Of a stretch of 30,465 nt of DNA, positions 4,678 to 19,921 are shown in pieces. The notes under the pieces are model-generated. The model was not told the DNA's origin. It ran no database searches and worked only from the letters and a program-made list of their open reading frames with translations. This DNA comes from Chlamydiota bacterium (GTDB lineage Bacteria; Auribacterota; Tritonobacteria; UBA1439): contig JBAXOY010000023.1 of NCBI GenBank assembly GCA_037133055.1, forward strand, positions 1-30,465. Direction: 5' to 3'. The number at the start of each line of letters is the position of its first letter. Positions within the stretch are counted from its first letter, which is position 1. The position numbers were made by a program, and so were the translations under genes.

Positions 4678-4858
4678 GGAGTTTTTCCACGAGCGTATGG
4701 TTCTGCAGTTTTGTCGCCTCGGACTTCCGGGTAATCCCGCCGTTCGCTCATTTGACCCCCCCGGGGACCCGTACACCCGCTCAGGGTCGCACCCCGGACG
4801 CCGGGTTTGCTATCTCGCTGATCCCGCAATCGGCATTCAGGCTTTGTCCCTTTTTCAT

Positions 4859-5122
4859 TCACGCCAGATTCCTTGCCCGCATAATAAGGTCCGCGGTCTT
4901 CCGGCGTATCTGGCCGATGAAATGGCAGTTCCTGCAGTCGGACTCCTTATCGTCATGATCTTCGCAGGAGAGAAGGAGATCCACCGCTTTTTTCAGCTCC
5001 CCGGCAAACTCAGCTTTCGCCGCGGCCCCCTTGGCCGCGTTGAGAGTATCCGTAATGCCCTTGATCGCATCCTCCTGCCGCAGAAACTTCGGACAGCCTA
5101 TCGCCCTGGATTCCTTTTCCAT
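4859..5122 (-). CDS. Small Cys-rich hypothetical protein (87 aa), C...C-x9-CxxCH
   Basis: AAAGGGGG RBS, 14 nt downstream of the gvpK stop, helical composition, four Cys. Confidence 0.7.
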   Translation of the reverse strand: MEKESRAIGCPKFLRQEDAIKGITDTLNAAKGAAAKAEFAGELKKAVDLLLSCEDHDDKESDCRNCHFIGQIRRKTADLIMRARNLA

Positions 5123-5136
5123 GGCCTGCGCCCCCT

Positions 5137-5472
5137 TTACATTAGGTCTCCCAAAGGCCCCAGGTTAATGTTCAAATCCTCGTCCTTGAGCCCAAAAATC
5201 CCTTTGAGCTCCTTTATCTTATCCTCCAGCTTCATCAGGGTCTCGCCAACCTGTTCAATCTGCTCGTCCGTCAGACTGCCCCCCTCTATCCGCCTCAGTG
5301 CCTGTTTTTCAAGCAGCTTCCGGATCAATTCCACCAGCGTGAGCACCAGCTTCGCGAGCCCTTTTTCGACATTCTTTGGATTCGCGTCAATCTTTTTGGG
5401 GAGGGCGTCCTGTATCTTCTCCAGCTCGTCCATGAACAACTCGGGTGAATCAGTCTCAACTTTGCGCTTCAT
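5137..5472 (-). CDS. gvpK: Gas vesicle protein K
   Basis: VEKGLAKLVLTLVELIRKLLEKQALRRIEGGSLTDEQIEQVGETLMKLE...DLNINLGPLG is the GvpK signature; GAGGTG RBS. Confidence 0.95.
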   Translation of the reverse strand: MKRKVETDSPELFMDELEKIQDALPKKIDANPKNVEKGLAKLVLTLVELIRKLLEKQALRRIEGGSLTDEQIEQVGETLMKLEDKIKELKGIFGLKDEDLNINLGPLGDLM

Positions 5473-5496
5473 GCTTCACCTCAGGTCAATCTCCCC

Positions 5497-6303
5497 TCAT
5501 CCGACCGAATCCCCCCTGTCCCCCTTTTTCAAAGGAGGCAGCGCTTCCTCACTCACTCCCCCCTTTGCGCAAAGGGGTTTAGGGGGGATTCTCACCCGCA
5601 CAAAATTATACGGAGGCCAGGGGCCGCTGAACAAATATCTGAAATCACCGTGCTCCTTTTTAAAACGCTCGAACAGTTCCCGGAAATCCCTCGCCGCCCC
5701 CTTTCCCACAAGATACTTCGCGTCAAGAAGCAGATCGCGGCTTTTAAGCCTTTCCGCCCTCTTTTCCGAAATGGCGTCTTGTAAAATGCTTTCCAGGGCG
5801 CGTATGTGCTTTTCCGCCTCTCGTTCAAAAGCCTTCTGCGTTTCATGTTCCGCCAGCTTCTCCTTCACATACCTTTTAGCCGGAGTGTCTCCCGGCGCCC
5901 CTGACCCGGCCGTTGAACTCTTATGCGCGCGCGCGATGCCTTCTCTTATCCTTTCCCCCGGCCAGATAATCCTGACGCCGAATTCCACCTTGTCCCTGAG
6001 CCTGTTGATGTTCTTTTTGAATTCATCGTAACGCCTTCTGAGAACATCAACGGCGTCAGCCTCTGTTCCAAATACCGTGTTGAATCTCATGGGCAGGACG
6101 ACATACCTGCCCATTACTCTTTCCACCACCTCTTCGTGCCTGAGGACATCCGTCCTCCCTGCATCCTTTATCACCCTCCCTATTTCACTTGAGACCAAAC
6201 CGATATCGCGATGGGGGATGGTATAAATAATCGCGCCATCCAGACCATTGATCCGTTCTTTGAGCGTATCACCGGAATCTATCACGCAATAGGAGTAGAT
6301 CAT
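5497..6303 (-). CDS. GvpL/GvpF family protein (paralogue 5) with repeat-derived C-terminal tail
   Basis: YSYCV, HEEVVE, VLPMRFNT, EFGVR and SGPWPPYNFV motifs. ATG at 6303 preferred because the upstream extension is repeat-encoded. Confidence 0.92.
   Translation of the reverse strand: MIYSYCVIDSGDTLKERINGLDGAIIYTIPHRDIGLVSSEIGRVIKDAGRTDVLRHEEVVERVMGRYVVLPMRFNTVFGTEADAVDVLRRRYDEFKKNINRLRDKVEFGVRIIWPGERIREGIARAHKSSTAGSGAPGDTPAKRYVKEKLAEHETQKAFEREAEKHIRALESILQDAISEKRAERLKSRDLLLDAKYLVGKGAARDFRELFERFKKEHGDFRYLFSGPWPPYNFVRVRIPPKPLCAKGGVSEEALPPLKKGDRGDSVG
5507..5591. repeat. C/G-tract hairpin dispersed repeat (copy 2), inside the 3' end of the gvpL/F gene
   Basis: GAATCCCCCC...GGGGGGATTC terminal inverted repeat with two internal CCCCCTTT-AAAGG(A/G)GG hairpins. 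Confidence 0.85.
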
Positions 6304-6310
6304 ACAATCC

Positions 6311-6384
6311 GCCTGCCCGTCGGCAGGTAAATCCCGAATCCCAAGTCCCAAATCCAAAACATCACGTTGTGTGGCATTTGGATT
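6311..6384. repeat. CCTGCC-N4-GGCAGG palindrome followed by heptamer tandem repeats
   Basis: GCCTGCCCGTCGGCAGG, then AATCCCG/AATCCCA/AGTCCCA/AATCCAA (6330-6357) and a complementary TTTGGAT. Confidence 0.6.
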
Positions 6385-6385
6385 T

Positions 6386-6604
6386 TCAGCTCGCTTCTTC
6401 CTGCGCCCCAGAAAACGGCGCTCCCCTCAACTTCTCCATGGTCTCAACCGAACTCAGCAACACCTTCAAGCCCAGGTACACAAGGTCCACATCGGCCACC
6501 GATATGACTATATCGCCGCTGATCACCACGCCCTTGTTCAACACCCGGTCGAGAACCTCCAGGAGCGTGACATCCCTTGATTTTATTACGACCTTATCCG
6601 CCAT
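6386..6604 (-). CDS. GvpA-superfamily accessory protein (GvpJ/GvpS/GvpM-like)
   Basis: TLLEVLDRVLNKGVVISGDIVISVADVDLVYLGLKVLLSSVET; ATG at 6604 after GGAG, overlapping the upstream stop. Confidence 0.92.
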   Translation of the reverse strand: MADKVVIKSRDVTLLEVLDRVLNKGVVISGDIVISVADVDLVYLGLKVLLSSVETMEKLRGAPFSGAQEEAS

Positions 6605-7418
6605 GATGTTTCTCCGAAAGCTCGCAGAAATTATACGGCGGCCATGGCCCGGTACAGTCGACTGAAAGGCCGGGGGAGGAGAATCTATCCTTGAAATCCT
6701 TTGTCGCATCGATGAAACCGCCTACCGCATTCCTGTCCACGAGAAAGACGGCATTCAGAATCATATCGTCGTTCCTCTCGGTGACCTCCCGCGGAAGCAG
6801 CTTATTTATGCGCGCGCGCACGCTCAATGCGCACAGCCTGGCGTATATCTCCTGTCCATACTCGTTCAGCTTTTTATCGACCAGGATAGTGAGCGCCTCA
6901 TCCCTTTTCTTTTTAAGCAGAAATGCCTTTCCAACGGAGGAGGAGGCGATCTCCTTATCCATCTGCGCGGCCTCTTTATCCTGCGCGCCGAGAAATGACC
7001 GCAATGTGCCGGTGTCGCAATAGAGCTTCAACCCCCATTCCTCTCTCCCGTGGAGCTCGTGCAACAAGTCCTCCAGTTCCTCCTCGTACTTCTCCAACCA
7101 GCTCCGGAGATTCGCGTCCGTGTTAAAAATAGTTCCCAATTTGAACGGGACGACCGCGCCGCCCTTCATCACTTCCCCGATCACCGTATTATGGATAGTC
7201 GCCTTTGTTTTGACCCATTCAAAATCAGAGAGATGTTTCTTAAGCCCCTCCTCTCCAAACTCCGTCTCGGCCGCCGCGCTCACCACGGCGTACAGACCGT
7301 GATGACACACCGCGACCGGCGCCGCCGCAAGCCCCGGCACAAGGACGGGCGCGGGCTCCCTTTCGGCCACACAGTACAGGTAGATAAGACCCTTTTTCCC
7401 GCTTTCCACGGCGCTCAT
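6594..7418 (-). CDS. gvpL: GvpL/GvpF family protein (paralogue 4, GvpL-like)
   Basis: IYLYCV, HNTVI, VVPFKLGTIF, GREEWGLKLY, MILNAVFLV, TGPWPPYNF. Confidence 0.9.
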   Translation of the reverse strand: MSAVESGKKGLIYLYCVAEREPAPVLVPGLAAAPVAVCHHGLYAVVSAAAETEFGEEGLKKHLSDFEWVKTKATIHNTVIGEVMKGGAVVPFKLGTIFNTDANLRSWLEKYEEELEDLLHELHGREEWGLKLYCDTGTLRSFLGAQDKEAAQMDKEIASSSVGKAFLLKKKRDEALTILVDKKLNEYGQEIYARLCALSVRARINKLLPREVTERNDDMILNAVFLVDRNAVGGFIDATKDFKDRFSSPGLSVDCTGPWPPYNFCELSEKHHGG

Positions 7419-7678
7419 TCGGACGACTCTCCCTCCCCCTTGCGCCCGTATGACTGCACTTCCAGGTCGGCGCTGAGCTTGACCGTATAGACGTTCCTGT
7501 CCTTCACCTTGACCGGGAGCCCGATTGATTTCATAAAGGCGCTATCCTCATAGACCTCCGCTTCGGTCTCCCACCCGTCGCTCACCCGGACGACCTTGAT
7601 GACCGTGACTTCTTTCGCGTTGAGCGTTTTCTTCAAAAAATCGCCGACCGTTTTCCCCGCTTCCTGAATTGCTGCCAT
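7415..7678 (-). CDS. gvpO: GvpO/GvpR-like gas vesicle protein
   Basis: DGWETEAEVYE...YTVKLSADLEVQSYGR matches the GvpO/R pattern; GGAGGTG RBS before the ATG at 7678. Confidence 0.75.
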   Translation of the reverse strand: MAAIQEAGKTVGDFLKKTLNAKEVTVIKVVRVSDGWETEAEVYEDSAFMKSIGLPVKVKDRNVYTVKLSADLEVQSYGRKGEGESSE

Positions 7679-7728
7679 AGATGCACCTCCCCTCCATAAG
7701 GAAAATCCCCGATCCAAAAAAGCCGGCT

Positions 7729-7986
7729 TCAATGCTCGTCTCGCTCGCCGCCCCCGGCACCCGTTGGTTTCCTCGCCGCGTCCAAACGTTCCAAAAGCTC
7801 TTTTTCAGCGCCGGTGTACTCTTCCTCGGTTATCTCGTCCAGCTCAAACCTGAGCTGCAACTCCATCAGTTTCTCCTTTATCCTCCCCTCGTCGGAGAAC
7901 TCCTTCTGCGCGACTTCGTCGAGCTTCCTCCCAAGCCAGACAATCATCTTGAGAGGAGAGAGAAGGATATCGTCGATCAGGAACAT
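7729..7986 (-). CDS. gvpG: Gas vesicle protein G
   Basis: MFLIDDILLSP...LMELQLRFELDEITEEEY...ELLERL is the GvpG signature. Confidence 0.93.
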   Translation of the reverse strand: MFLIDDILLSPLKMIVWLGRKLDEVAQKEFSDEGRIKEKLMELQLRFELDEITEEEYTGAEKELLERLDAARKPTGAGGGERDEH

Positions 7987-8041
7987 TCGACCCCCCCCCT
8001 ACTACCAATGACGAATGTCATTTGGATTTTGTCATTTGTCA

Positions 8042-8848
8042 TCAATAGCTCTCCGTCTCTATCACCAGATTCACGAAATTGAACGGTGGGAGCGTGCCCA
8101 CGTATTTAAACTTAATAGTCTCGCCGTATTTTTCGACAAGCCCCTCGACCGCCCGGTCAAACTCCTCTTCGCGCCGCTCCTCAACCAGGAACGCCGCATT
8201 CATAACCATCCGCTCCCCATACGTTGCATTGATCTTGGTATCCAGCGCGACGGGTGCAAGAAATTCCAGCATCTTCTCGCGATATTCCTCACGTTCCTTC
8301 CCGAGCGCCTCCTCAACCATCCTGCCTATTTCCATGCGCTGATAATGGGTTTTGTCCGCCGGCAGATTCGCGATCTTCTCCTTTTTCCGCCGTATATGCT
8401 CATATTTCTCCAGAATGGACGGATATATGAATTCCTCCTTGAACACCGCCTTGAGGCCGAGCTCCTTTTTCCCATCCATCTGCCGCAATATCTGCGCGAA
8501 TCGGTCGTGCTCCTTCTCCAATATCTTCCGCATCTTGTCTTCGCTCTCCGCGATGGTGCCGAACCTGACGGGCAGCACCGTATGATGCTTCATAACCTCC
8601 TCGATCGCCTTCTCATGTGCGATCGTATTCTCCCGCGACACCCTGTATTCCTTGACGGGGGAGTTGCTGACCACGGCGGCCACGTCATTGACGCCGAAGC
8701 TCCGCACCTCATCCCCCCTGCCGCCGATCCCTATGGGGCCAAAGGCATCGGGCTTTCCAGCCGCTATTATGCAATAGATATACTTGCCTTCTTTCACCCC
8801 GCCCCCCGTTTGCGTGTCGTTTTTCACTCGGATATCGTCGGTTGTCAT
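8042..8848 (-). CDS. gvpF: GvpF/GvpL family protein (paralogue 3)
   Basis: GKYIYCII, AHEKAIE, VLPVRFGT, ELGLK, NAAFLV, VGTLPPFNFV. Alternative GTG start at 8797. Confidence 0.93.
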   Translation of the reverse strand: MTTDDIRVKNDTQTGGGVKEGKYIYCIIAAGKPDAFGPIGIGGRGDEVRSFGVNDVAAVVSNSPVKEYRVSRENTIAHEKAIEEVMKHHTVLPVRFGTIAESEDKMRKILEKEHDRFAQILRQMDGKKELGLKAVFKEEFIYPSILEKYEHIRRKKEKIANLPADKTHYQRMEIGRMVEEALGKEREEYREKMLEFLAPVALDTKINATYGERMVMNAAFLVEERREEEFDRAVEGLVEKYGETIKFKYVGTLPPFNFVNLVIETESY

Positions 8849-8854
8849 TAAACG

Positions 8855-9625
8855 CTATTTCTCCCAATCCTCAGGATAGATAACGATATTCACAAAATTG
8901 AATACAGGCAGCGGCCCGACGTACATGAACGTCATTCTATCCGTATATTTCCTGCCCAGGTCATCCATGATATTGTCGAATTCTTTTTCCCGCCCCTTGT
9001 CCACCAAAAACGCGGCGTTCATGAACATTTTGTCCTCAGTGGTGTTGTTAAGTTTGTGCTCGAAGGCGGTTCTCCGCAGCGCGTCCACGATTTTTTCCGC
9101 CTCCTGCCGCTTCTTCCTGGCTAACGCCTGCTCGACCATCTTGCCCAGTTCCACCCGTTCCTCAATATCCCCCTTGTCCCTCGATTTCCGCAGGGTTTCC
9201 TTCAACTGCCTGATTTCCTTGCTCTTCTCTCCGATCTCTCTATAGATGCACTCCATATCCTTCCACAGCCCCTTGACGCCAAGCTCGACCTTGTGATCCA
9301 TATCCCGCAGGGCATGTTTGAATTCCCTGTATCTTCTATCGAGCATGTTGCGTATCTCATCGGCGTCCTTCGCGACGGTGCCGAATCGCACCGGGAGCAC
9401 CCCGTCGAACTCCTTCATCACCTCCTCGATCACCCTCTCGTGGGCGAGCATATTGTCGCGATTGACCACAAACCGCGTCATGGGATGGTTGCTCACCACC
9501 ATGCTGAGGTCCTCATACCCGATCGTGAGCACTTCGTCGCCCCTCCCGCCTATGCCGTTGGCTCCGAAGTTCCTCTCCTGCTTTGTCCCGATGATGCAAT
9601 AGATGTATTTGCCTTCTTTTTCCAT
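8855..9625 (-). CDS. gvpF: GvpF/GvpL family protein (paralogue 2)
   Basis: MEKEGKYIYCII, AHERVIE, VLPVRFGT, ELGVK, NAAFLV, VGPLPVFNFV. Confidence 0.93.
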   Translation of the reverse strand: MEKEGKYIYCIIGTKQERNFGANGIGGRGDEVLTIGYEDLSMVVSNHPMTRFVVNRDNMLAHERVIEEVMKEFDGVLPVRFGTVAKDADEIRNMLDRRYREFKHALRDMDHKVELGVKGLWKDMECIYREIGEKSKEIRQLKETLRKSRDKGDIEERVELGKMVEQALARKKRQEAEKIVDALRRTAFEHKLNNTTEDKMFMNAAFLVDKGREKEFDNIMDDLGRKYTDRMTFMYVGPLPVFNFVNIVIYPEDWEK

Positions 9626-9642
9626 GGTGCGCACTCCCCCGA

Positions 9643-10686
9643 TTACTCCCTGCATCTTACGAAAATGGAATTCCTTTTGATGTCGCTGTCTTTGAATGAA
9701 AGGATTTCACTGTCCCCTCCCTGCTCCGACGCCCGGGCGTACTCGTCGAGGATCTTCCACGCCCTGGTGAGATCATCAAACACCTTCTCCATATCGGTTC
9801 CATCAGGATTCGTGTCCGGATGCGATGAAAACGCTAATTTTTGGTGAATTTTTTTGAGCTCCGTCCGTGTGGCCGCGTCGCCCAGACTAAAAATCCGCCT
9901 CGCCCAATTGACCCTGTCGCTCCCCAGCTTGTTCACCTCAAGCGTGAAGAAGCTATAGGGGGGGAGCGGCCCGATGCGCCGAAAATCAAGCTTCTCATCA
10001 AACCGGGCATTGAGCTCATCCACCCTCGCATCGAATGTCTCTCGATTATCATGAGAGACGAGAAACGCGCTGTTCAGCACCATCGTGTCATCCATGAGTT
10101 CGTGCTCCCTGAACCCGCAGCTCACCCCTTTGAGCTCATGGAGAACGACGGCGGCGCACGCATTTCTCCGCTCATCCAGCAGCTTTTTTACCATAAGCCC
10201 CACCGTCATCTGATCCTGGACGGTCACCCCGTCTGAACTCGCGAGGAGCTTTGCCTTGATCGCCCTGACCTCTTTCATTTCCCCGGTCTCTTTCAGCAGC
10301 GCGTCGAAATCACTCCAGGTCACCGCAACGTCGATTTCGACCCTGTCAGCGATTTCCTTAAACACCCCCTTCGCGAGCTCATACCCACGGGCAAGAACAT
10401 CCTGCGCCTGGGTCATGCTGTCCGCATAGGTCCCCACCCTCATCGGGATAACCGAGAACCGCCGCATCACGCTCTCGATCACCTGCTGATGATGTATCAG
10501 TCGCCGCGCGACTTCACTTTTCAGCAGCGTGGCGTAGTCGCACAACTCGGAATCGCTCACCACCGCGGCGATATCCCTGTGGGGAATGGTGTACACCCGT
10601 TCCCCCCCCTCGATCCCGTGCGGATCGAAGGAAAGCTCTTCATCGGATTCAACGATTCCATAGATATATTTTCCTTCCCTCTTCAT
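9643..10686 (-). CDS. GvpF/GvpL family protein fused to a C-terminal DnaJ-type J-domain
   Basis: GvpF/L motifs GKYIYGI, HQQVIE, IPMRVGT, IGPLPPYSF, then ARRIFSL...ELKKIHQKLAFSSHPDTNP...FDDLTRAWKIL (HPD codons at 9814-9822). Confidence 0.9.
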   Translation of the reverse strand: MKREGKYIYGIVESDEELSFDPHGIEGGERVYTIPHRDIAAVVSDSELCDYATLLKSEVARRLIHHQQVIESVMRRFSVIPMRVGTYADSMTQAQDVLARGYELAKGVFKEIADRVEIDVAVTWSDFDALLKETGEMKEVRAIKAKLLASSDGVTVQDQMTVGLMVKKLLDERRNACAAVVLHELKGVSCGFREHELMDDTMVLNSAFLVSHDNRETFDARVDELNARFDEKLDFRRIGPLPPYSFFTLEVNKLGSDRVNWARRIFSLGDAATRTELKKIHQKLAFSSHPDTNPDGTDMEKVFDDLTRAWKILDEYARASEQGGDSEILSFKDSDIKRNSIFVRCRE

Positions 10687-10697
10687 GCGAGCCGTCC

Positions 10698-12839
10698 TCA
10701 AGCCTTGTGATGGGATGGCGATCGCGGATTCCGCGAGCTCTCAACCATTTTCATCGCCTCTTCAAAATGCCTCTTCTGGATGGTGGGCGAGTCCTTCCCT
10801 TTCGGCGTGCGTTCGATAAACTCCCGTATGGCAATCATCGCCGCCTTGCGGCATATAAGCTCGATATCAGACCCCGACTTGCCCTCGGTTTCCCTGGCCA
10901 TCCTCTTCAGATCAACGTCCGGGGATACGGGCTTGTTTTTGACATGGATCTTGAATATCTTTCCCCGCGCCGCCTCGTCGGGGATCGGCAGCTCAAGGAG
11001 CAGATCGAATCTGCCGCTCCTGAGCAGCGCCGGGTCAACAAGGTCCAGCCTGTTGGTCGCCGCCAGCACCATCACGCCCTTGAGCTCTTCTATCCCGTCC
11101 ATCTCGGTGAGAAACTGGCTTATCACCCGCTCCGTCACATGGGCGTCGGTGGAACTGGAACCCCGCCTGGGCACGACGCTGTCAATCTCGTCAAAGAAGA
11201 GGATGGTGGGCGACGCCTGTTTCGCCTTTTTGAAGACCTCCCGGATGCCCCGCTCGCTCTCCCCGACGTATTTTGATATGAGGGAGGGTCCCTTCACCGA
11301 GATAAAATTGACTCCGCTCTCATTTGCCACCGCCTTTGCGAGGAGGGTTTTTCCCGTCCCCGGGGGCCCGTACAGGATGATCCCCTTCGGAGGAGAGGTG
11401 TTTGTCTTCTTGAATATCTCCGAGTACTTGAGCGGCCACTCCACCGCCTCTTTCAACTCCTCCTTGATAGAATCCAACCCCCCCACATCCTCCCAGGTGA
11501 CATCCGGCACCTCCACAAAAACCTCTCTGATCGCGGATGGTTCGACCTCCTTCATCGCTTCCAGAAAATCATCCATCGTCACCTCAAGCTTCATGAGCGT
11601 CTCGTAGGGGATATCGGCCATCTCAAAGTCTATCTTCGGGAGAATCTTCCGCAATGCCGACATCGCTGCTTCCCGCGCAAGCGCCTCGAGATCGGCGCCC
11701 ACGAAACCGTGGGTGATCTCCGCGAGTTTCCCCACGCTCACGTCCTGCGCCAGGGGCATGCCCCTCGTGTGGATATGAAGTATTTCAAGCCTGCCGTTTT
11801 TGTCCGGGATGGGAATGGCTATCTCCCGGTCGAAGCGCCCGGGCCGCCTCAGCGCCGGATCCACTATGTTGGGGACGTTGGTCGCGGCCATGACGACCAC
11901 GTGCCCCCGTGACTCCAATCCGTCCATGAGCGCCAGGAGCTGGGCCACCACCCGTCGCTCAACCTGTTTCTCGGCCCCCATGTCTTCCCTCTTGGGAGCG
12001 ATTGATTCAATCTCATCGATGAATATGATCGCGGGGGCATGCGCCCTGGCCTCCTCAAAGAGGGACCGAATGCGGCCTTCCGATTCGCCGTAAAACTTCC
12101 CCATGCACTCGGGCCCGCTCATGCTGGTAAAGTACGCGTCCGTTTCGTGCGCCACCGCGCGCGCGATCAATGTCTTTCCGCACCCCGGCGGCCCGTGAAG
12201 GAATACGCCCTTGGGGGCGTCAATGCCGAGCCGCTCGAACACCTCGGGATAGCGCAGCGGCAGCTCCACCATCTCCCTGATACGCTGGACCTGCGTGCCG
12301 AGGCCGCCGATATCCTCGTACGAGACCTTCGCGGGCCCCTTCTCCGGCGCCTCCTTGGTCTTGATCCGTATCACCGTGGCGGTGCTCAACACCACCACGC
12401 CATCGGGGCTCGTATCGAGCACCTTGAAATCACACGACCGCGTGCCGAAAAGCACCGCCCGTATCCGGTCGCCCACCATCACCGGAAGCCCGTCAATGAG
12501 CGAGCCGATGTACTTGCTGTCCTTCTCCCGGTCCGCCAAGCCCGACATGGTCAGGGGGGAAAGCGTCACGCTCCGCGCGGGTTTCGATTCCACTTTGTGA
12601 ATCTTCACCCGGTCATCAAGCCCCACCTGCGCGTTCTCGCGCAGTATCCCGTCCATCTGGATGATCTTCATGCCGCGATCCGGGGCGTAGCACGGCATCG
12701 TCTTCGCGGGGGTCTTCCGCTTCCCTTCAACCTCAATGATCTCCCCCACCTCGACGCCGAGCTTCTTCATGTCATCGGGATCTATTCTCGCGATAGACCT
12801 CCCGACATCCTTGGATAACGCCTCTTTTACTTTTAGCAT
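10698..12839 (-). CDS. cdc48: Cdc48/VCP/p97-family AAA+ ATPase (N domain + D1 + D2)
   Basis: N domain [11 protein letters not shown]1: [34 protein letters not shown]2: [41 protein letters not shown] before the ATG at 12839. Confidence 0.95.
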
Positions 12840-12942
12840 CGGATAACCTCCGCGTATCCTGCCCCCATCCCCTGTCTTTTCCCAATCGCCCCCGAAAAAA
12901 TCGCCTCCGCCCTCGCCCCTGCCTGTCGTCGCGCAGGCTTCT

Positions 12943-13881
12943 CTACGCTCCACAAAGCGAATGCCCGAACCTGATCAGGGACTCGCCCCCCCTCACCTCC
13001 CCGGGTTGCAACGGCATCATGACAATCTCGAATTTCCCGAACTTTTCCTTTATCATTTTGATGTATTTTTCCTGCCCCTTCCTCCGCTCCCTGCAGAAAT
13101 CGCAGTCGCTCGACCTCACCACGTTATTGACCACCATCTGCGTTACGTTGATTCCCGCCGCGCGGAGGCTGTTCACCAGCCGTTCGGTTTCCGCGATCGC
13201 CATCTCCTCCGGAATGGTCACCACGATGAATTCGCAGCGCCGCCCGTCGTGGAGCAGGCCCTCGATCCGCTTTACCACCTTCTTCATTTCGACGAGGAAC
13301 TCGTCGGCCTTGTCCGGCTTCGCCCGCCCTGCAAAGGCATCCACCACGCGATGATATTTCCACCGCATCTTCGCGGCCACCTTGATCCAGTCGTCGAGGA
13401 TGCCGGGCAGCGTGAGCAACCTCAATGCGTGCCCGGTGGGCGCGGTGTCGACGATATACTTGTCGAATTTTCCCTCCTCCACGAGGTCGAGGATCGTCTT
13501 GAACCCCATCACCTCGTCGATGCCCGGGATGGAGAGCGCAAAGACGGAATCGATGTCGGCATTGTCAAGATAGGTCGAGCTGTCGAGAATCCATCGTATC
13601 TCATCTCCGTACTTTGCCTTGAACTGGCGGAGCGCCTTGTCCGCGCTTACTTCAATTGCGCTCAGGTTCCGCACGCCTTCAATCCCGGTTACGGCATCCC
13701 CGATGCGCTGGCCGAAACAGTCCGAAAGGGAATGGGCGGGATCGGTGGAAATGAGCAGGGTTTTATAGCGCCCGGCCAAATAAAAACCTGTGCTGGATGC
13801 ACAGGTCGTTTTTCCCACCCCGCCCTTTCCTCCGAATAAGATCAGTTTCAGCGCGTCATTATTCAATCCCGTGAGTGACAT
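12943..13881 (-). CDS. ArsA/GET3-family ATPase, single domain
   Basis: Deviant Walker [10 protein letters not shown], switch [14 protein letters not shown], switch II DTAPTGH, VVNN and a CDFC (CxxC) motif. Confidence 0.93.
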
Positions 13882-14447
13882 TTCATCACTTTAATTTCCA
13901 GCATGCCGTTATTGTATTTTGAGCGAAGCGTGTCCGCGTTGACCTTTGCCGTGAGCAGGATCTCCTTGCGGTATTTCCTCTCGCCGGATTTGGCTGAAAT
14001 ATCCAGGATATCCCCTTTCAAATCAATCTTGATATCCTTTTCATTCACCCCCGGCATTTCAGCGTACACCCGGATCTCTTCCTTTTCGTCGAACACGTCG
14101 GCGATCGGTTCCCGCTCCTCCTCGACCCTCGGCCCCTGGGGAGTTTTTTTGATCTTGTGGCCGAACGGCTCGACAGAAACCGGCTTGCCGCCGAGGGCGG
14201 TTTTTACAGAGAAACCAAAAACCCCTTTCATCCCCTCCTTCAGGTGGCTCAGGTCAATCTCGCCCTCTTTTCGTATTTCGCCCCCCCCCTCTTTCAGGGA
14301 TTCCGCCAGGTCCACCAATTTTTCAAGCCCTTTGAACAACCCCCCCAGGCTGAATTGCCCCATGCCGATGTCGAAATCCGCCCCTTCCTTCTCCTTCTTT
14401 CCGCCATAGGCGGATCCGCCCCCGATGGGCTTCTTTCCCTTTATCAT
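13863..14447 (-). CDS. Hsp20/alpha-crystallin protein (GvpH-like)
   Basis: EEEREPIADVFDE...AEMPGV..DIK...YNNGMLEI alpha-crystallin domain. Confidence 0.9.
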   Translation of the reverse strand: MIKGKKPIGGGSAYGGKKEKEGADFDIGMGQFSLGGLFKGLEKLVDLAESLKEGGGEIRKEGEIDLSHLKEGMKGVFGFSVKTALGGKPVSVEPFGHKIKKTPQGPRVEEEREPIADVFDEKEEIRVYAEMPGVNEKDIKIDLKGDILDISAKSGERKYRKEILLTAKVNADTLRSKYNNGMLEIKVMKCHSRD

Positions 14448-14503
14448 GGCTCTCTCCTCTCTGTCCCCGGTCCAGCCTCAGTGTGTGACCCCGCCGATGG
14501 CGC

Positions 14504-14815
14504 TCAATAGTCCAGCGACATCTTCTTCAGTTGCGATTCCGGACGGCTCCTCGCCCCTCTTTCGCCCTTCTTTCTGCTCGCCGCATCATTTTTTTCCAGC
14601 CGTTCGAGTTTTTTTGCGATGTCATCGAGCTTATCCTTATCCTCCCGCACCTTCTTGTCGAATATGAAGATCTCCTTTTCCAGTCGTTCCTTTTCCTTGC
14701 GGAGAACGAACATATCAAGGTAAATGGAACTCTCCTTCCTCGGGATCCCCTTTCTCGCGCCGCCGCCCAGTGTCCTGATACCCCTCATCCCCCTGATCTC
14801 TGTCAGCCCCTTCAT
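14504..14815 (-). CDS. Basic coiled-coil protein, possibly GvpV-like
   Basis: GGAGGAG RBS; YLDMFVLRKEKERLEKE coiled coil; sits between gvpJ and Hsp20. Family call is tentative. Confidence 0.65.
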   Translation of the reverse strand: MKGLTEIRGMRGIRTLGGGARKGIPRKESSIYLDMFVLRKEKERLEKEIFIFDKKVREDKDKLDDIAKKLERLEKNDAASRKKGERGARSRPESQLKKMSLDY

Positions 14816-14831
14816 GATACTCTCCTCCGGT

Positions 14832-15128
14832 TCACTTTATCTTCGCTTCCAGGCGCTCGATCCTCTTCTTTAAAACCTCATTCTCTTTCTTGAACTCCTT
14901 TTCCCTCGCCTTCGTGGAAAGGTATGCGTCCTGCTGCCACCAGTTGATCCCCATGGCCATTGCCCTGTCAACGGAAGCGATCAAAAGCCGTATCTTGATA
15001 TTGAGAAGGTCTATGTCGGCTATCTGTATTTTTATATCCCCGGCTATTACAATACCCTTGTCCAGCACCCTCTCAAGAATATCTGCAAGATTCGTAGCTT
15101 GAATAGAATGTGTCATCTGCTCTGTCAT
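14832..15128 (-). CDS. gvpJ: Gas vesicle protein J
   Basis: LADILERVLDKGIVIAGDIKIQIADIDLLNIKIRLLIASVDRA..MGINWWQQDAYL; AGAGGTG RBS before the ATG at 15128. Confidence 0.92.
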   Translation of the reverse strand: MTEQMTHSIQATNLADILERVLDKGIVIAGDIKIQIADIDLLNIKIRLLIASVDRAMAMGINWWQQDAYLSTKAREKEFKKENEVLKKRIERLEAKIK

Positions 15129-15148
15129 GATCGGCACCTCTTATTTTA

Positions 15149-15181
15149 GAATCCCCCCCCCGTCTTTTTTTAAGGGGGGAT
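15149..15181. repeat. C/G-tract hairpin repeat (short copy 3)
   Basis: GAAT-C9-GTC-T7-AA-G6-AT between gvpN and gvpJ. Confidence 0.65.
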
Positions 15182-15203
15182 GTGCCGGAGCTGAAACTCC
15201 GGA

Positions 15204-16157
15204 TCAATCCCCTTTACTCACGCCATCGGGCGATTTCTTATTTACACTGCATTTCTGCACAAGCTCCGCGACCACCTCCCGCACCCTCTCCTGATTGGTC
15301 CTCGACCCGACCCTGCTGGTTTCCGATGCCAGTATGTCCTGGCACATCTGCAGGAAGGTGCCGTTCGCATTTGACGGCGCAAGCCCGGACGTCGCGAGGG
15401 TCTTCGCTATCATGATACAACCCCGGACTGTCGGAGCGAACTCGCACTTCCCGGATTCCCTGAGTCCCCGCACTATATTTACTATGACCTCCACCTGTTT
15501 TCTCGGCAGTTTTGACTTCGCCCTCGTGATGGCCGTCTCCGTCTCATAGTCGAAGTGGCCCAAATCCATCGTTATCATCCTGTCTCTTAATGCGTCCTGG
15601 CTCCGGTGCGTGCCGGCATACTCTTCGGGATTGGAGGTAAAGAGAGCGACGAAATTCGGATCCACCTTCAGATAGGGCTCCTCTCCTCCTCTTCCCACCG
15701 GCAGATCCATCATCTTCTCCTGCAGGATGGACAGGAGGATATTATTGGCCTCCGGACGGGAGCGGGTGAACTCATCGTATATCAAGGTGAACCCGTATTT
15801 GCAGGCGACCGTGAGCCTGTTGTCAACCCAGTGTTTCACCATGTCTTCTTCCATCTTCATGACCCTGGACACAAAACGGTCAACCACCTTTCTGAATTTG
15901 TACCCGTACTCCCCTCCCACGAGATCGGAAGTGGTAAACTCCTCATCTCCATGAACCAGGACGAGCGGCCTCCCTATCTTACCGGCCACATGCATCGCAA
16001 GGGTGGTCTTTCCTGTCCCGGAGGCCCCCCTGAAGTGAACCGGGAACCCGGCTTTTATATAGGATAACGCCCTGTTGGTGACATCCTTGATATACGCCGT
16101 TTCAACGAAGTCCGGCAGCGGATTGGGCTCTAACACCGTGGTCATCTCTTCTATCAT
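15204..16157 (-). CDS. gvpN: Gas vesicle AAA+ ATPase GvpN
   Basis: PVHFRGASGTGKTTLA, WVDNRLTVAC..GFTLIYDEFTRSRPEANN, FTSNPEEYAG, QDALRDR. Confidence 0.96.
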   Translation of the reverse strand: MIEEMTTVLEPNPLPDFVETAYIKDVTNRALSYIKAGFPVHFRGASGTGKTTLAMHVAGKIGRPLVLVHGDEEFTTSDLVGGEYGYKFRKVVDRFVSRVMKMEEDMVKHWVDNRLTVACKYGFTLIYDEFTRSRPEANNILLSILQEKMMDLPVGRGGEEPYLKVDPNFVALFTSNPEEYAGTHRSQDALRDRMITMDLGHFDYETETAITRAKSKLPRKQVEVIVNIVRGLRESGKCEFAPTVRGCIMIAKTLATSGLAPSNANGTFLQMCQDILASETSRVGSRTNQERVREVVAELVQKCSVNKKSPDGVSKGD

Positions 16158-16164
16158 TTCCCTA

Positions 16165-16410
16165 TCACTCCTTTCTTTTCTTCCTCATCTCTTCCAATCG
16201 CTCGATCGCCTCGCTCCACAATTTCCCCGCCTCATCCAAATCCGCCATGATCACCTTTGCTTTTGATTCGGATTCATTCCTCAGGGCGCTATAGTCGGCG
16301 GTCAATTTCTTTCTGAGGCGCGCACGGTCAGCCATCAGCCTATGCCCCATTTCCTCATGGGCCGACCGGAGGCTTTCTATGAGGCCCCTCCCCTCCTCGC
16401 GGCTTTTCAC
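16165..16410 (-). CDS. Small helical hypothetical protein (81 aa), possibly GvpC-related
   Basis: GAGG RBS and GTG start; ends 7 nt before gvpN. LRSAHEEM and DLDEAGKLW resemble parts of 16921-17571. Confidence 0.65.
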   Translation of the reverse strand: MKSREEGRGLIESLRSAHEEMGHRLMADRARLRKKLTADYSALRNESESKAKVIMADLDEAGKLWSEAIERLEEMRKKRKE

Positions 16411-16449
16411 GATATCCTCACATAGTTATTCCATTCAATCAATAGCCCG

Positions 16450-16785
16450 TTACCGTTTTCTTACCACCCCTTTGCCCCCGCACGGCGGACAGGGAAGACC
16501 GCTGTCTACCGACCGGCCGCTGCCCTTGCAGCCCGGGCAGGTCGACGTGCTCCCCCGCACGGCGACCTTCCCCCTCCCCCCGCACACAGAGCAGGTGATT
16601 CTTGCGCCGCGAGGAAAAATCCCGGTCCCCTTGCAAAAGGCGCACCGTACCGCAGGGCTGCCGACGCTTACCGTGCCCCCCCCGCCGCACACCTGGCACG
16701 TGGCGAGCGCTGATAAAAGGTTGAACGGATCCCTCCCCCGCCCCCCGCAATACACGCACGCTATCTTTCTGGTCGCAGTGGTCAT
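16450..16785 (-). CDS. Stand-alone DnaJ-type zinc-finger protein with six CxxCxGxG motifs
   Basis: CVYCGGRG, CQVCGGGG, CAFCKGTG, CSVCGGRG, CPGCKGSG, CPPCGGKG. Confidence 0.88.
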   Translation of the reverse strand: MTTATRKIACVYCGGRGRDPFNLLSALATCQVCGGGGTVSVGSPAVRCAFCKGTGIFPRGARITCSVCGGRGKVAVRGSTSTCPGCKGSGRSVDSGLPCPPCGGKGVVRKR

Positions 16786-16825
16786 TTCAAAGTTCCCGAC
16801 AACGCCTCGGTTCCCGCAGAATAAA

Positions 16826-16861
16826 CCCCCCCTGCCCCCCGAAAAAGGGGGGGTAGGGGGG
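16826..16861. repeat. C/G-tract hairpin repeat (copy 4)
   Basis: CCCCCCCTGCCCCCCGAAAAAGGGGGGGTAGGGGGG. Confidence 0.7.
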
Positions 16862-16920
16862 CCTGCCCCACCACCCCTGCCTGCCGGTCATTCAGACAGG
16901 CTTCCCTGTCAGGGGTGAGT

Positions 16921-17571
16921 TTATCCTCTCTTCCTCGGTCTTCCTCTTTTCTTTTTCGGCTTCGCGACAGCCTGCGCAACGGTTTTTGTCTCCGCCCTTC
17001 CGCTCACCTCAAGAGGTCTCTTGCCCGCTCTCGTTCTGGCCATCGTGGATGACATGGAGCGCCAGGCGCCGGCCATTTTCCCTTTTTCGGATTCAAAACC
17101 GCTCATCAGGTCCGCCGCATTGGCAATAATCCCTTTCACCTCCTTGACAAGGGCATCCACAAACCTGGCAAGATCCTTCCTTTGTTCCTTGCTCATCTGG
17201 GAGTGGGCGTCGGAAAACTCTTTCAACTTGTTTTTGACGTCCGTCTCGATGGCTTTGACGTGCGTCTCGATAGCCTTCGTGTTCTTCTCGAGGCTTGCCC
17301 TGAGGTCGTCGGCCATTCCCTTGTGATCTTTCTGAAACCCGCCAAGGAGGTTTCCGACGCTCTTGGTCAGATCCCCCACGAAGCCCCCAAGAAATTGAGC
17401 CTGTCCCGCGCTCATCTTCTTCCTGTCGGACGCAAAACCCCTTACCGTTTTCCGGGCGTTGCCCAGGGTGTCGTGCACGTCACTGACAATCTGTCCCAGT
17501 GCCTTCACCCTCACTCCGTGAGAAGATATGATATTATCAGCTATGCCTTTCATCTCATCGGCAATTCCCAT
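16921..17571 (-). CDS. gvpC: GvpC-like helical repeat protein (33/40/40-aa repeats, basic tail)
   Basis: Repeats start VRGFASDRKKM, LGGFQKDHKGM, LKEFSDAHSQM and MSGFESEKGKM, spaced 33, 40 and 40 aa; position between gvpA and gvpN. Confidence 0.7.
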   Translation of the reverse strand: MGIADEMKGIADNIISSHGVRVKALGQIVSDVHDTLGNARKTVRGFASDRKKMSAGQAQFLGGFVGDLTKSVGNLLGGFQKDHKGMADDLRASLEKNTKAIETHVKAIETDVKNKLKEFSDAHSQMSKEQRKDLARFVDALVKEVKGIIANAADLMSGFESEKGKMAGAWRSMSSTMARTRAGKRPLEVSGRAETKTVAQAVAKPKKKRGRPRKRG

Positions 17572-17682
17572 GTTCTCCCCCTCTCTTTTTGAATCCGCCC
17601 CACCCCATTGGCGAGGCGCTGTTTCACCACGCGCACCCCTGTAGAGGTCCGGCGCTGCAGTATGTAATCCCCGTCACACGGC

Positions 17683-18441
17683 TCACCCGCGCCTGTCATC
17701 TTTGGTGACGGAGTTAATGGTCGTGTCTATCACCCCCTCGCATGAGGACGCGGCCGCGCTTCGCGCCCGCCTGGCTTCCTCCTCTTCCCACCTGCTATTC
17801 TTGAAACCGTCGAGCATGCGATGGACCTCGGTTTTCCTCGCCTCCCGGCGGGCTGCCCCGCTCGTATGGCGTGGGTTGTATTCTTCGAGCATCAGTTTGA
17901 GATCCGTTATGCGAAGTTCCCGACCTTTCGCAGAAAGGCTTTTCAGCCTCTTTGCAATCTCCTGTTGTTTTTGCTGGAATTTCTTAAGTCTGGCGGTTAC
18001 TTCATTCCTTCTTTCTTCCTGTGCGGCGATAATCCTGCTGATCATCGCCCGGTATTCCCTGACCCTCACGGACTCGCCTGAGACAAGGCACTCTCTGAAT
18101 TTTTTAAGCCCCTCCCGTAAATCCCCCGCTGTCTTTCCCTGCTCGCAGAAATAGCCGTCCACCAGATTCCCGATTTCCCTCTCTTCGCCCTCCTGAACGG
18201 AAAGGAACCCCACGATCATGGTATCGAAGTCCCTTTTTCTGAGTGATCCATTCCGGGCGAGCGCTTCTTTCAGATCGGAATTGATCCTGTCCCTTTCTTG
18301 TTTTATCTCTGAAAAGGATTTATGGAAATCTGAAATGATCCGGCGGGTTGTGTCAAAAGCGGATTCAATCTCTTGAAGCCTGGCGTCATAGGAGAAAACC
18401 ATGTTTTCAACAACGCCGGTCGCCCCTTCTTCAAAGCCCAT
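17683..18441 (-). CDS. Helical coiled-coil protein (252 aa); N-terminus similar to the GvpC-like gene
   Basis: GGGAG RBS; MGFEEGATGVVENMVFSYDAR aligns with MGIADEMKGIADNIISSHGVR. Confidence 0.75.
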   Translation of the reverse strand: MGFEEGATGVVENMVFSYDARLQEIESAFDTTRRIISDFHKSFSEIKQERDRINSDLKEALARNGSLRKRDFDTMIVGFLSVQEGEEREIGNLVDGYFCEQGKTAGDLREGLKKFRECLVSGESVRVREYRAMISRIIAAQEERRNEVTARLKKFQQKQQEIAKRLKSLSAKGRELRITDLKLMLEEYNPRHTSGAARREARKTEVHRMLDGFKNSRWEEEEARRARSAAASSCEGVIDTTINSVTKDDRRG

Positions 18442-18476
18442 TGTTCCGCTCCCTAACCATTCATTTCGAATAGGTT

Positions 18477-18537
18477 AAAGGTATTGCTTGGCGAGATATG
18501 CCCCGCCTTGCGGAGGATACCTCGGCAAGCACCCTTT
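18477..18537 (-). terminator. Long stem-loop immediately after the second gvpA (partial terminator or mRNA stabiliser)
   Basis: Arms AAAGGTATTGCTTGGCGAGATATGCCCCGC / GCGGAGGATACCTCGGCAAGCACCCTTT; short U run on the minus strand. Confidence 0.65.
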
Positions 18538-18544
18538 TCTCCGC

Positions 18545-18751
18545 TTACGCCGCTGACGCGGTCAGGCCGATTGCCTCGGCATACTTCAGGTACGTCTCGA
18601 CTGATGCCGCCACGATTCTGGCTTCAACAGCGAGCAGCTCAATACCCACCAACGACACTCTCACCCAGGCGTCGACCACGATGCCCTTGTCCAGTATCCG
18701 GTCTATAACCTCAACCAGGCTGGAAGAACCGATCGTTTTTTCCACTGCCAT
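18545..18751 (-). CDS. gvpA: Major gas vesicle shell protein A (copy 2)
   Basis: [55 protein letters not shown]. Confidence 0.98.
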
Positions 18752-18810
18752 GGTACACGTTCCTTTCCCGAGCTGGATGTTGATGACAACCTACCCCATG
18801 CCACTCACCT

Positions 18811-18852
18811 AAATCCCCCTCCCCCCCTTAAAAGGGGGGAATGGGTGGATTT
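18811..18852. repeat. C/G-tract hairpin repeat (copy 5), between the gvpA copies
   Basis: AAATCCCCCTCCCCCCCTTAAAAGGGGGGAATGGGTGGATTT. Confidence 0.7.
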
Positions 18853-19057
18853 ACGCCGCTGACGCGGTCAGGCCGATTGCCTCGGCATACTTCAGGTACG
18901 TCTCGACTGATGCCGCCACGATTCTGGCTTCAACAGCGAGCAGCTCAATACCCACCAGCGACACTCTCACCCAGGCGTCAACCACGATGCCCTTGTCCAG
19001 TATCCGGTCTATAACCTCAACCAGGCTGGATGAACCGATCGTTTTCTCCACTGCCAT
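18851..19057 (-). CDS. gvpA: Major gas vesicle shell protein A (copy 1)
   Basis: Protein identical to copy 2; strong AAGGAGGTGA RBS before the ATG at 19057. Confidence 0.98.
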
Positions 19058-19120
19058 CTGACTCACCTCCTTCCCTTTTTGGATTTTTGAAGCAACACCC
19101 GCCGTTCCGGCGGGTAATTT

Positions 19121-19348
19121 CTATTCTGAGTTCTGCGACGACACCCGGTGCGCGCGCATTTTACAGTAAGAAGCCGCAAATTTGGAGACCCATTCCTCGG
19201 GGGTAAGGCCGCCCTGCCTGCACTGCCTTTCCATCAGCTTCGTTTCCCTGAGGATATATTCCCTGGCAGTCACGAACCCCTCCGCTCTCTTCCGCAAAAC
19301 GCCTATGTTCAGATCCAAAGGATTATCCGACTGATTCTTCTCGTGCAT
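19121..19348 (-). CDS. Small hypothetical protein (75 aa), first ORF after the sigma54 promoter
   Basis: GGGTGA RBS; ATG about 35 nt downstream of the -12 element; helical LTPEEWVSKFAASY motif. Confidence 0.65.
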   Translation of the reverse strand: MHEKNQSDNPLDLNIGVLRKRAEGFVTAREYILRETKLMERQCRQGGLTPEEWVSKFAASYCKMRAHRVSSQNSE

Positions 19349-19884: not shown

Positions 19885-19921
19885 ATCTACTCTTGTAAAA
19901 GAATGGCGTCTCAAATATTCC

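Follow-up and report, generated by a model that had tools for sequence, protein, structure and literature searches.

The contig JBAXOY010000023.1 of the Chlamydiota bacterium assembly GCA_037133055.1 (GTDB lineage Auribacterota; Tritonobacteria; UBA1439) was analysed over its entire length of 30,465 nucleotides (hereafter, the window); the genome is 2.99 Mb in size and 92% complete. The window carries a gas vesicle (gvp) gene cluster that includes genes for an Hsp20, a single-domain ArsA ATPase, a Cdc48-type AAA+ ATPase, a GvpF protein fused to a J-domain (GvpF-J) and a DnaJ-type zinc finger; these genes are intact, are co-inherited with gvp genes in many phyla and keep their catalytic and docking motifs. 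The set is best explained as an optional arm for the quality control and salvage of hydrophobic shell subunits and not as core assembly machinery, an explanation held here with about even confidence.

Chaperone Genes of the Cluster

All genes named in the original prediction (gvp genes, Hsp20, ArsA/GET3, Cdc48, GvpF-J, the zinc finger and gvpN) are intact open reading frames (ORFs) of the minus strand, on which the flanking regulators and TraB-like genes described below also lie. The core of the set comprises an archaeal-type Hsp20 (GvpH; 13863..14447; PF00011; best model NF041800 with 125.8 bits, under the cut-off of 140), a Get3/TRC40-type ArsA ATPase with a CxxC dimer motif (12943..13881; TIGR00345, 266.1 bits, cut-off 135), a Cdc48/VAT-type ATPase of N-D1-D2 architecture, very likely an orthologue of the Serratia GvpZ (10698..12839; TIGR01243, 934.5 bits, cut-off 802.65), and a GvpF/L protein with a C-terminal J-domain and an HPD motif at residues 289–291 (9643..10686; PF06386, 192.6 bits; PF00226, 31.4 bits, cut-off 27.8). 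The predicted consecutive order of these four genes after gvpJ holds, but a GvpV-like coiled-coil ORF (14504..14815; 103 amino acids, named from synteny) separates gvpJ from hsp20. Likewise, the stand-alone zinc-finger protein (16450..16785; PF00684), which has six CxxCxGxG motifs and no J-domain, lies before gvpN as predicted, but a small, poorly conserved helical ORF of 81 amino acids (16165..16410) sits between the two. Taking the likely start codons, the intergenic gaps in the gvp run range from −19 to 135 nucleotides; Hsp20 and ArsA overlap by 19 nucleotides, the gap between Cdc48 and GvpF-J is 11 nucleotides, and that between ArsA and Cdc48 is 103 nucleotides if cdc48 begins at the probable ATG at 12839 and not at the GTG at 12953.

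Conservation and Linkage to gvp Genes

The best 80 of 445 Cdc48 relatives from one-per-species genomes were analysed, and each gene was scored only in loci with enough flank. A gvp gene is present in 76 of the 80 loci, the other four being contigs shorter than 4 kb on which Cdc48 has no neighbour but Hsp20 or ArsA, and the same gene order recurs in at least 17 phylum-level groups, as judged by record title. Hsp20 lies at most 2.2 kb upstream of Cdc48 in 48/48 loci and GvpF-J lies downstream of it in 52/55, so the proposal that the chaperone genes are conserved next to gvp genes stands; ArsA is found between Hsp20 and Cdc48 in 38 of 48 loci, the zinc finger in 27/38, the TraB-like gene in 33/36, the GvpV-like ORF in 35/38 and the GvpC-like ORF in 37/38.

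To offset the bias of the 80-locus set, four phylum samples were screened for gvpN and Cdc48 separately (3 to 28 candidates were scored per genome, and kin are not independent). Among 79 genomes of the host phylum, gvpN and Cdc48 occur in an identical set of 10, and none has Cdc48 without gvpN. A second sample of 151 genomes has gvpN in 8, Cdc48 in 15 and both in 8; for the phylum sample of an Omnitrophota record (201 genomes) the figures are 9, 6 and 6, and for that of a Eubacteriales record (301 genomes) 5, 13 and 5. In the 728 genomes that make up the pool once the four centre genomes are removed, Cdc48 is present in 25 of 28 genomes with gvpN and in 15 of 700 genomes without it, which agrees with the suggestion that the chaperone genes are dedicated to gas vesicles. 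Cdc48 adjoins gvp genes in 23 of the 28 gvpN genomes, and three gvpN-only clusters end at contig ends. In RefSeq plasmids of Methylocella and Methylosinus, a gene annotated as CDC48 closes a gvp cluster, the Hsp20–TraB-like–Cdc48 arrangement also occurs on methanotroph plasmids, and Hsp20 and CDC48 are adjacent on two haloarchaeal plasmids.

The chaperone genes of the cluster are distinct from the housekeeping copies of the host. A tblastn search of the host genome found no second Cdc48 or ArsA, and outside the cluster the genome encodes a housekeeping DnaK, three further J proteins and one further Hsp20; the Cdc48 tree described below agrees with this distinction.

Several variants of the cluster were observed among the loci compared. 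This cluster type is also seen at loci L018 and L071, whose records bear the titles Patescibacteria and Saccharibacteria (affiliation as deposited). Clusters L156, L164 and L165 have two gvpN genes with zinc-finger or other accessory genes near each, and in L066, L084, L085 and L086 cdc48 is separated from gvpF-J by genes for a TraB-like protein, a second Hsp20 and a receiver.

Cdc48: Motor Anatomy and Phylogeny

Profile searches delineate an N domain (CDC48_N, PF02359, and CDC48_2, PF02933) followed by two AAA modules. In the alignment, the D1 Walker A motif, the aromatic pore loop and the arginine fingers are kept in 83/83 rows, and the D2 motifs are kept in their commonest variants; Walker B motifs accompany those of Walker A, as expected of a Cdc48/VAT/p97 protein. 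The HbYX C-terminus mediates docking to the 20S proteasome and is not universal in the Cdc48/VAT/p97 family; none of the 65 complete Cdc48 C-termini from the 80 loci, read by eye, ends in such a tail, and no proteasome subunit (PF00227) was found in the 92%-complete host genome.

A tree of 40 Cdc48 rows, a subset of 76 (20 gvp-linked, 15 not, four archaeal-labelled and one unlabelled, with thin outgroup sampling), places all gvp-linked proteins within a bacterial clade of 30 rows, apart from the archaeal rows (Shimodaira–Hasegawa-like approximate likelihood ratio test, SH-aLRT, 99); the window-type Cdc48s form an 11-row clade with a support of 99. A gvp-specific Cdc48 clade, for which the original prediction proposed a test by trees, was not recovered: strict monophyly is rejected (approximately unbiased test, p-AU 9.17e-5, 20 versus 20 rows), and the label of gvp linkage changes at least three times on the tree. 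The gvp-linked Cdc48s together with three non-gvp rows make up one side of a branch with a support of only 6. One gain of gvp linkage with later escapes, or several captures, are both possible histories. Scanning 37 of 66 candidate ORFs beside non-gvp Cdc48s found no common theme. Three non-gvp Cdc48s (L184, L185 and L188) are nested among gvp-linked ones, two of them beside a fusion of a Ser/Thr kinase and FGE and one with an Hsp20-like neighbour; these are possibly escaped copies.

The protein resembles archaeal VAT/Cdc48, and the cluster resembles the archaeal Hsp20–CDC48 heat-shock regulon (Phr, HSR1), in the N-D1-D2 architecture, the motor motifs and the archaeal-type Hsp20 neighbour; in archaea, Hsp20 and CDC48 share their regulation during heat shock (PMC5852551). 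Unlike the archaeal proteins, the window Cdc48 belongs to the separate bacterial clade, lacks HbYX and occurs in a host where no proteasome gene was detected. A complex modelled for Cdc48 residues 1–440 and Hsp20 scored 0.39, the best of three controls reaching 0.01, with a contact agreement of at least 23% and a partner predicted local distance difference test (pLDDT) score of at least 52. The score mark was reached by 116/157 solved and 2/215 mismatched pairs, passes at 0.60 or below comprised 18 solved pairs and both mismatched ones, and passes as low as 0.39 are, by the calibration of the tool, more often wrong than right; the model lends weak support to a contact between Cdc48 and Hsp20.

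Other Proteins of the Chaperone Arm

The J-domain, Cdc48 and ArsA proteins keep the motifs of the functional types that had been assigned to them. The HPD motif of GvpF-J is intact in 65/65 complete fusion ORFs (rows chosen by the best match to the fusion, with nine cut by contig ends dropped). The predicted structure of GvpF-J (pLDDT 92.6) matches GvpF (PDB code 6l5d, E 6e-17) and J-domains (probability 1.00); helices at 274–288 and 299–322 flank the HPD, and the features of class C J-domains are present. In Serratia-type clusters a plain GvpF/L, without a J-domain, follows Cdc48.

The ArsA protein (312 amino acids) is a single domain in which the deviant Walker A, the switch motifs and the CxxC are conserved. 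All 23 Get3-type PDB sequences rank above the three arsenite-pump ArsA entries as matches to it, and the alignment to Get3/TRC40 chaperones, including algal ArsA1 (5zme), archaeal proteins (3zq6, 3ug6) and yeast Get3, which have the same domain and motifs, is full-length and includes the helical insert; the difference is that the window protein is encoded in a gvp operon. An identity as an arsenite-pump ArsA was rejected, the TIGR04291 score being 129.5 bits versus a cut-off of 650, the protein having 312 amino acids and no ars gene being present among the scanned ORFs. Among 56 complete homologues, 49 have 302–358 amino acids and seven have 651–770. A two-domain ArsA is encoded directly after gvpG in loci L156, L157, L160, L168, L169 and L067, a position hinting that GvpG or the next small Gvp might be its client.

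The zinc finger of DnaJ has four CxxCxGxG motifs. The window protein (PF00684, 36.8 bits, cut-off 32.7) has six, as read from its translation, and matches the DnaJ finger 1exk (E 1.7e-5); six strict motifs are present in 51/74 homologues, which form two positional classes around gvpN. Plastid BSD2, ZnJ6 and PSA2, which likewise have CxxCxGxG repeats and no J-domain, are DnaK-independent holdases or assembly factors (PMC7865324); unlike them, the window finger is bacterial and carries six motifs instead of four. The matches listed by a profile search of the structural database are all DnaJ fingers and anti-TRAP, with no homology to BSD2 detected. As for Hsp20, halobacterial GvpH keeps GvpM from aggregating (PMC6107691).

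Relationship to the Serratia Cluster and Probable Identity of gvpZ and gvpY

GvpV–Z are listed as being of unknown function in Serratia in the accessible text of PMC4982088. The identities of GvpZ and GvpY were inferred from published deletion primers and synteny rather than from the Serratia sequence itself. Desulfobacterota- and Bacillota-type loci match the Serratia gene order gene for gene, so that GvpZ was predicted to be Cdc48, and GvpY to be TraB-like, ahead of the primer comparison. In translation, the gvpZ 3′ primer reads VRWEDV, which is the motif at the entry to D2 (residue 447), and its score was equalled by none of 1000 shuffles on five profiles; the gvpY 5′ primer corresponds to the N-terminus of the TraB-like family (2/1000 shuffles within the family, 30/1000 overall). 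An exact scan with the gvpZ primer found two metagenome contigs, of which L193 is unrelated and L194 has the order ArsA-S-K-x-J-TraB-like-gvrA-Hsp20-Cdc48, the same as in Serratia from A2 onwards. Four Serratia primers find their best positions inside the L194 cdc48, in the right order (15/19 at the start, 15/20 in D1, 20/20 and 14/18 at the D2 entry); primers gvpF2_5F, gvpH_3R and gvpH_3F alone are non-significant against the profiles (103, 168 and 287 of 1000 shuffles) and count only through their positions in L194. Serratia is absent from the 120 rows of a homologue search with a Desulfobacterota-type Cdc48, among which is Desulfomonile tiedjei. In a post hoc comparison of GvpW as a candidate second TraB-like protein, the GvpW 5′ primer fits the TraB-like family (3/1000 shuffles within the family, 53/1000 over five profiles) and the 3′ primer does not (846/1000).

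Judging from the primers, Serratia gvpZ very likely encodes Cdc48, and gvpY probably encodes the TraB/TIKI-fold protein that is present twice in the window; an assignment of gvpZ as ArsA was discarded, since the primers read as Cdc48. Cdc48 would thus already belong to the best-studied proteobacterial gvp cluster, which goes against the view of the literature in the original prediction, where Hsp20-like and ArsA-like genes are named for Serratia. The published gvpZ deletion appears to have removed N and D1 and to have left D2 in frame. The literature searched contained no paper that ties Cdc48, a J-domain or the zinc finger to gvp clusters; earlier papers on the Serratia cluster may already annotate GvpZ.

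The cluster of Serratia sp. 39006 and that of the window have in common GvpA/J/S, several GvpF, G, K, N, GvpC-like and GvpV-like proteins, a sigma54 activator, a kinase and a receiver, as well as Hsp20 (GvpH), Cdc48 (probable GvpZ) followed by GvpF genes, and the TraB-like protein (probable GvpY). The window block hsp20-(arsA)-cdc48-gvpFJ-gvpF-gvpF corresponds to the Serratia block gvpH-gvpZ-gvpF-gvpF, with the identity of GvpZ taken from the four primers. In contrast to Serratia, Hsp20 and Cdc48 of the window are encoded inside the structural operon with a Get3-type ATPase between them, the first GvpF has a J-domain, and the window contains the six-motif zinc finger, a further helical protein behind gvpA, GvpO, a total of five GvpF/L paralogues and a gvpA present as two identical copies. 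A layout of two operons in which gvpH/Z follow gvrA occurs at other loci and not in the window. The clusters of Polaribacter, Pelodictyon and Geobacter uraniireducens likewise have arsA and hsp20 among gvpN, F/L, G, J, K, M and O, and Castillo and Saier (2010) proposed that ArsA and Hsp20 energise biogenesis (PMC2963123); their ArsA proteins have two domains and about 600–640 amino acids, unlike the single domain of the window, and the accessible text of that paper has no occurrence of cdc48 or DnaJ. The window cluster is a variant of the Serratia type, to which the GvpF-J fusion, the six-motif zinc finger and the single-domain Get3 are undescribed additions; the module is no rarity, and gene names already exist for half of it.

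TraB/TIKI-like, GvpC-like and Small Accessory Proteins

Two copies of one TraB/TIKI-like protein flank the gvp run: copy 1 (23303..23926), a TraB/TIKI/ChaN-fold putative hydrolase and probable member of the GvpY family, and a second copy (1054..1689), 42% identical to it. PF01963 is matched weakly by 29 of 56 family members (E ≤ 0.05, best 1.8e-4). The model of copy 1 (pLDDT 88.8) shows a fold match to ChaN (Z-score 9.8, root mean square deviation 4.1, 155 aligned residues) and, at Z-scores of 6–8.4, to other members of the TraB/TIKI superfamily; Foldseek gave no match for it at E ≤ 0.001, and PDB profile searches with the TraB-like and GvpC-like families gave only weak or generic helical matches. 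Invariant residues of the family (His, Asp, Asn, Glu, Arg-Asp and Gly-x-x-His) have a putative metal-ligand role. The modelled fold and these residues suggest a relation of the protein to the EreA/ChaN/TIKI superfamily, from whose members it differs in having only about 205 amino acids and weak sequence matches; the modelled fold suggests that the duplicated protein is a putative hydrolase of the TraB/PrgY/GumN group.

GvpC has helical repeats of 33 residues, and the family of ORF 16921..17571 has its top self-similarity offset at 33 residues, which is consistent with a GvpC-like amphipathic repeat protein; PF01304 is not among the 25 of 130 families listed for this family. The conserved helical protein 17683..18441, functionally unassigned, always occupies the slot between gvpA and gvpC in a 43-member alignment, falls into unnamed Atlas clusters and has a weak lead (0.86) to a cluster with PF01304 in 11% of its members. 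The GvpV-like ORF belongs to unnamed Atlas clusters (0.95–0.96) of Cyanobacteriota and Thermodesulfobacteriota. The 87-residue protein encoded after gvpK (4859..5122) is conserved in a 41-row consensus with four invariant-looking cysteines, and may possibly contain a zinc site and be a candidate for the GvpX slot.

Cluster Layout, Regulators and Genomic Setting

Downwards from 19057, the genes follow in the order gvpA, gvpA, two helical proteins, the zinc finger, the small ORF, gvpN and gvpJ, then GvpV-like, hsp20, arsA, cdc48, gvpF-J, F, F, G, O, L, S, L, K and the four-cysteine ORF. Membership among gvp clusters of the Serratia 39006 type is supported by the presence of GvpA, GvpJ/S paralogues, GvpF/L, G, K and N; in this metagenome-type assembly, vesicles are a prediction from the genes. 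The first gvpA (18851..19057; 68 amino acids from ATG; NF006874, 130.8 bits, cut-off 100) and the second (18545..18751) encode identical proteins; gvpN, encoding an AAA+ ATPase, lies at 15204..16157 (TIGR02640, 329.8 bits, cut-off 266.8) and gvpJ at 14832..15128 (PF00741). After gvpF-J come two gvpF/L paralogues (8855..9625 and 8042..8848; PF06386), gvpG (7729..7986; PF05120), a conserved gvpO-like gene (7415..7678; PF05800, 18.8 bits, under the cut-off of 25), a gvpL/F paralogue (6594..7418; PF06386), a gene for a GvpA-family protein of the gvpS/M type (6386..6604; PF00741), a further gvpL/F paralogue (5497..6303; PF06386) and gvpK (5137..5472; PF05121).

The locus runs past both ends of the 4859..19348 region outlined in the original prediction and includes regulators and the two TraB/TIKI-like genes. 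On one side lie genes for a gvrA-like sigma54 enhancer-binding response regulator (19922..21325; PF00158, PF00072, HTH_8), a receiver protein with a weak N-terminal GYF_2 match (21389..22084; profile scan), a gvrB-like PAS histidine kinase (22125..23228; PF00512, PF02518, PAS) and, after TraB-like copy 1, a gvrC-like stand-alone response regulator (23923..24351; PF00072); the gvrA/B/C-like match at 19922–24351 is by domain type. On the other, profile scans revealed a dCache-HAMP-PAS-PAS histidine kinase (2062..4776) and a stand-alone response regulator (1686..2099), so both TraB-like copies adjoin response regulators. The window has three one-mismatch matches to sigma54 sites, with 3.2 expected; a site within 300 nucleotides of gvpA is present in 13/52 relatives (9/2600 shuffles) and not in the window. 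A sigma54-like −24/−12 site with two mismatches was seen by eye at approximately 19385–19399 on the minus strand, about 36 nucleotides before a 75-residue ORF (19121–19348), and is non-significant alone; this ORF has no homologue among the loci compared for GvpF-J. Between the sigma54 activator and the gvpA region, at 19605–19899, there are short imperfect direct and inverted repeats (a 20-mer in three copies and two smaller families), possibly a small mobile or regulatory element.

Bases 1–24500 have a G+C content of 54.3%, compared with 64.5 ± 3.5% for the genome, and 5 of 199 other 10-kb windows are equally low. Both genus-mates lack gvpN and Cdc48, and the cluster is present in a genome of another genus of the same family with DNA blocks 73–96% identical; low G+C and patchy distribution among kin fit an acquired island or patchy loss. 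A 1399-residue subtilase with FG-GAP repeats and Pro-Thr linkers (24741–28940, minus strand), having a host-like G+C content of 69%, marks the right edge of the island near 24.5 kb. At the contig start, a 267-residue ORF (179–982) has one homologue (L013, 46%), likewise located after a second TraB-like gene, and the island may continue past the contig end.

Function of the Chaperone Arm

Experimental evidence comes from other organisms. For Serratia, the accessible text of PMC4982088 does not list gvpH, W, X, Y and Z as required, and strains deleted for gvpH and for gvpZ retain both vesicle formation and flotation (PMC4982088, PMC10344784). The expectation that loss of chaperone genes would alter the vesicles is therefore contradicted for vesicle formation and flotation in these two mutants, kinetics and turnover lying outside those assays; Tashiro et al. 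state that kinetics could not be assessed (PMC4982088). It is because of this dispensability in Serratia, and because ArsA and the zinc finger are patchy, being absent from about one-fifth to one-third of clusters, that the set is regarded as optional and not as core assembly machinery. Within such an arm, Hsp20 (GvpH) and the zinc-finger protein would act as holdases for GvpA-family subunits that are stray or not yet assembled, GvpF-J would bring the host DnaK, whose gene is present, to GvpF-bound subunits via the HPD, and the dimer of the Get3 type would cover a hydrophobic helix. Shell material that has collapsed or been wrongly assembled, possibly passed on by Hsp20, would be unfolded by Cdc48 (GvpZ) through threading. 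Since there is no HbYX tail and no proteasome gene was found, the products would either be used again or go to host proteases or the TraB/TIKI-like hydrolase, and the arm would work like a bacterial, proteasome-free Hsp20–Cdc48 salvage module.

Several points weigh against the salvage arm. The substrates, binding and activities of all its members are predictions; the 80-locus set was chosen by likeness to the query and contains kin that are not independent; 15 sampled genomes have Cdc48 without gvpN; and the Cdc48s do not form a single gvp-only clade. Tashiro et al. found that vesicles made in the absence of gvpH were unaltered in shape and stability (PMC4982088), and the data from E. coli conflict: deletion of gvpH, W, Y or Z reduced or abolished the signal in the work of Hurt et al. 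(PMC10344784), and in another study the yield rose with each single deletion (bioRxiv 10.1101/2024.10.30.621148). In Serratia-type clusters Hsp20 and Cdc48 are co-transcribed with gvrA, which fits a regulatory role too.

Perhaps Cdc48 actively dismantles or remodels intact vesicles, with buoyancy lost on a signal from the flanking two-component proteins and holdases catching the released subunits. The intact motifs of the double-ring motor, assembly that proceeds in the deletion mutants, the higher yield in one E. coli study and the presence of a GvpC-like coat protein, TraB-like hydrolases and sensor kinases in the same island all accord with such a scheme; it is nevertheless judged unlikely, as the literature searched reports no such phenotype, loss of gvpZ lowered the signal in the other E. 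coli study (PMC10344784) and no adaptor presenting shell subunits to Cdc48 was identified. A requirement of the set for de novo assembly in the cluster type of the window, with GvpF-J, DnaK and Cdc48 delivering GvpA to the growing shell, would account for the very tight conservation of Hsp20–Cdc48–GvpFJ (48/48 and 52/55) and for the essentiality of the GvpF paralogues of the post-Cdc48 slot in Serratia (PMC4982088), and the published gvpZ deletion, apparently with D2 in frame, may not be null. This seems somewhat less probable still, because Serratia floats without gvpH or the N-D1-containing GvpZ, the GvpF/L after Cdc48 is plain in Serratia-type clusters, and these names are absent from the classical cyanobacterial, Bacillus and haloarchaeal gene lists in the accessible table of PMC11267810.

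About as doubtful, or slightly more so, is the possibility that Hsp20, Cdc48 and the TraB-like protein act on GvrA/B/C, gvp transcription being controlled by the unfolding or cleavage of a signalling protein. The consecutive TraB-like, gvrA, hsp20 and cdc48 genes of Serratia-type clusters, the location of both TraB-like copies of the window beside response regulators and the Hsp20–TraB-like–Cdc48 arrangement of methanotroph plasmids favour it, but in the window type Hsp20–ArsA–Cdc48–GvpFJ lies mid-operon among the structural genes and apart from the regulators, and the deletions have effects in E. coli constructs (PMC10344784). A cassette for general stress protection that travels with a mobile gvp island and has no Gvp client could be imagined from the low G+C content of the island, the known archaeal heat-shock pair Hsp20–Cdc48 (PMC5852551) and the existence of related Cdc48s without gvp genes; it is highly improbable given the fusion of the J-domain to GvpF itself, the gene order kept across at least 17 phylum-level groups and the constant company of gvpN and Cdc48 in the host phylum (10/10).

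A bolder form of the active scheme, likewise unlikely, supposes dedicated p97-like turnover in many phyla, where Hsp20-loaded GvpZ/Cdc48 would extract GvpA, GvpF-J would hand subunits to DnaK and GvpY would clip the shell or coat. If true, this would be the first case in prokaryotes of an enzyme system that disassembles an organelle and reverses buoyancy, and such machinery would already sit unrecognised in the bARGSer reporter. Returning to the optional salvage arm, the probable family identities of GvpZ and GvpY make two genes of “unknown function” testable in a tractable, widely engineered cluster, the HPD-intact GvpF-J predicts DnaK dependence for a widespread cluster type, and the arm could account for the conflicting deletion outcomes in acoustic-reporter engineering. 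The findings bear on how the very hydrophobic GvpA stays soluble and on whether gas vesicles are ever actively dismantled.

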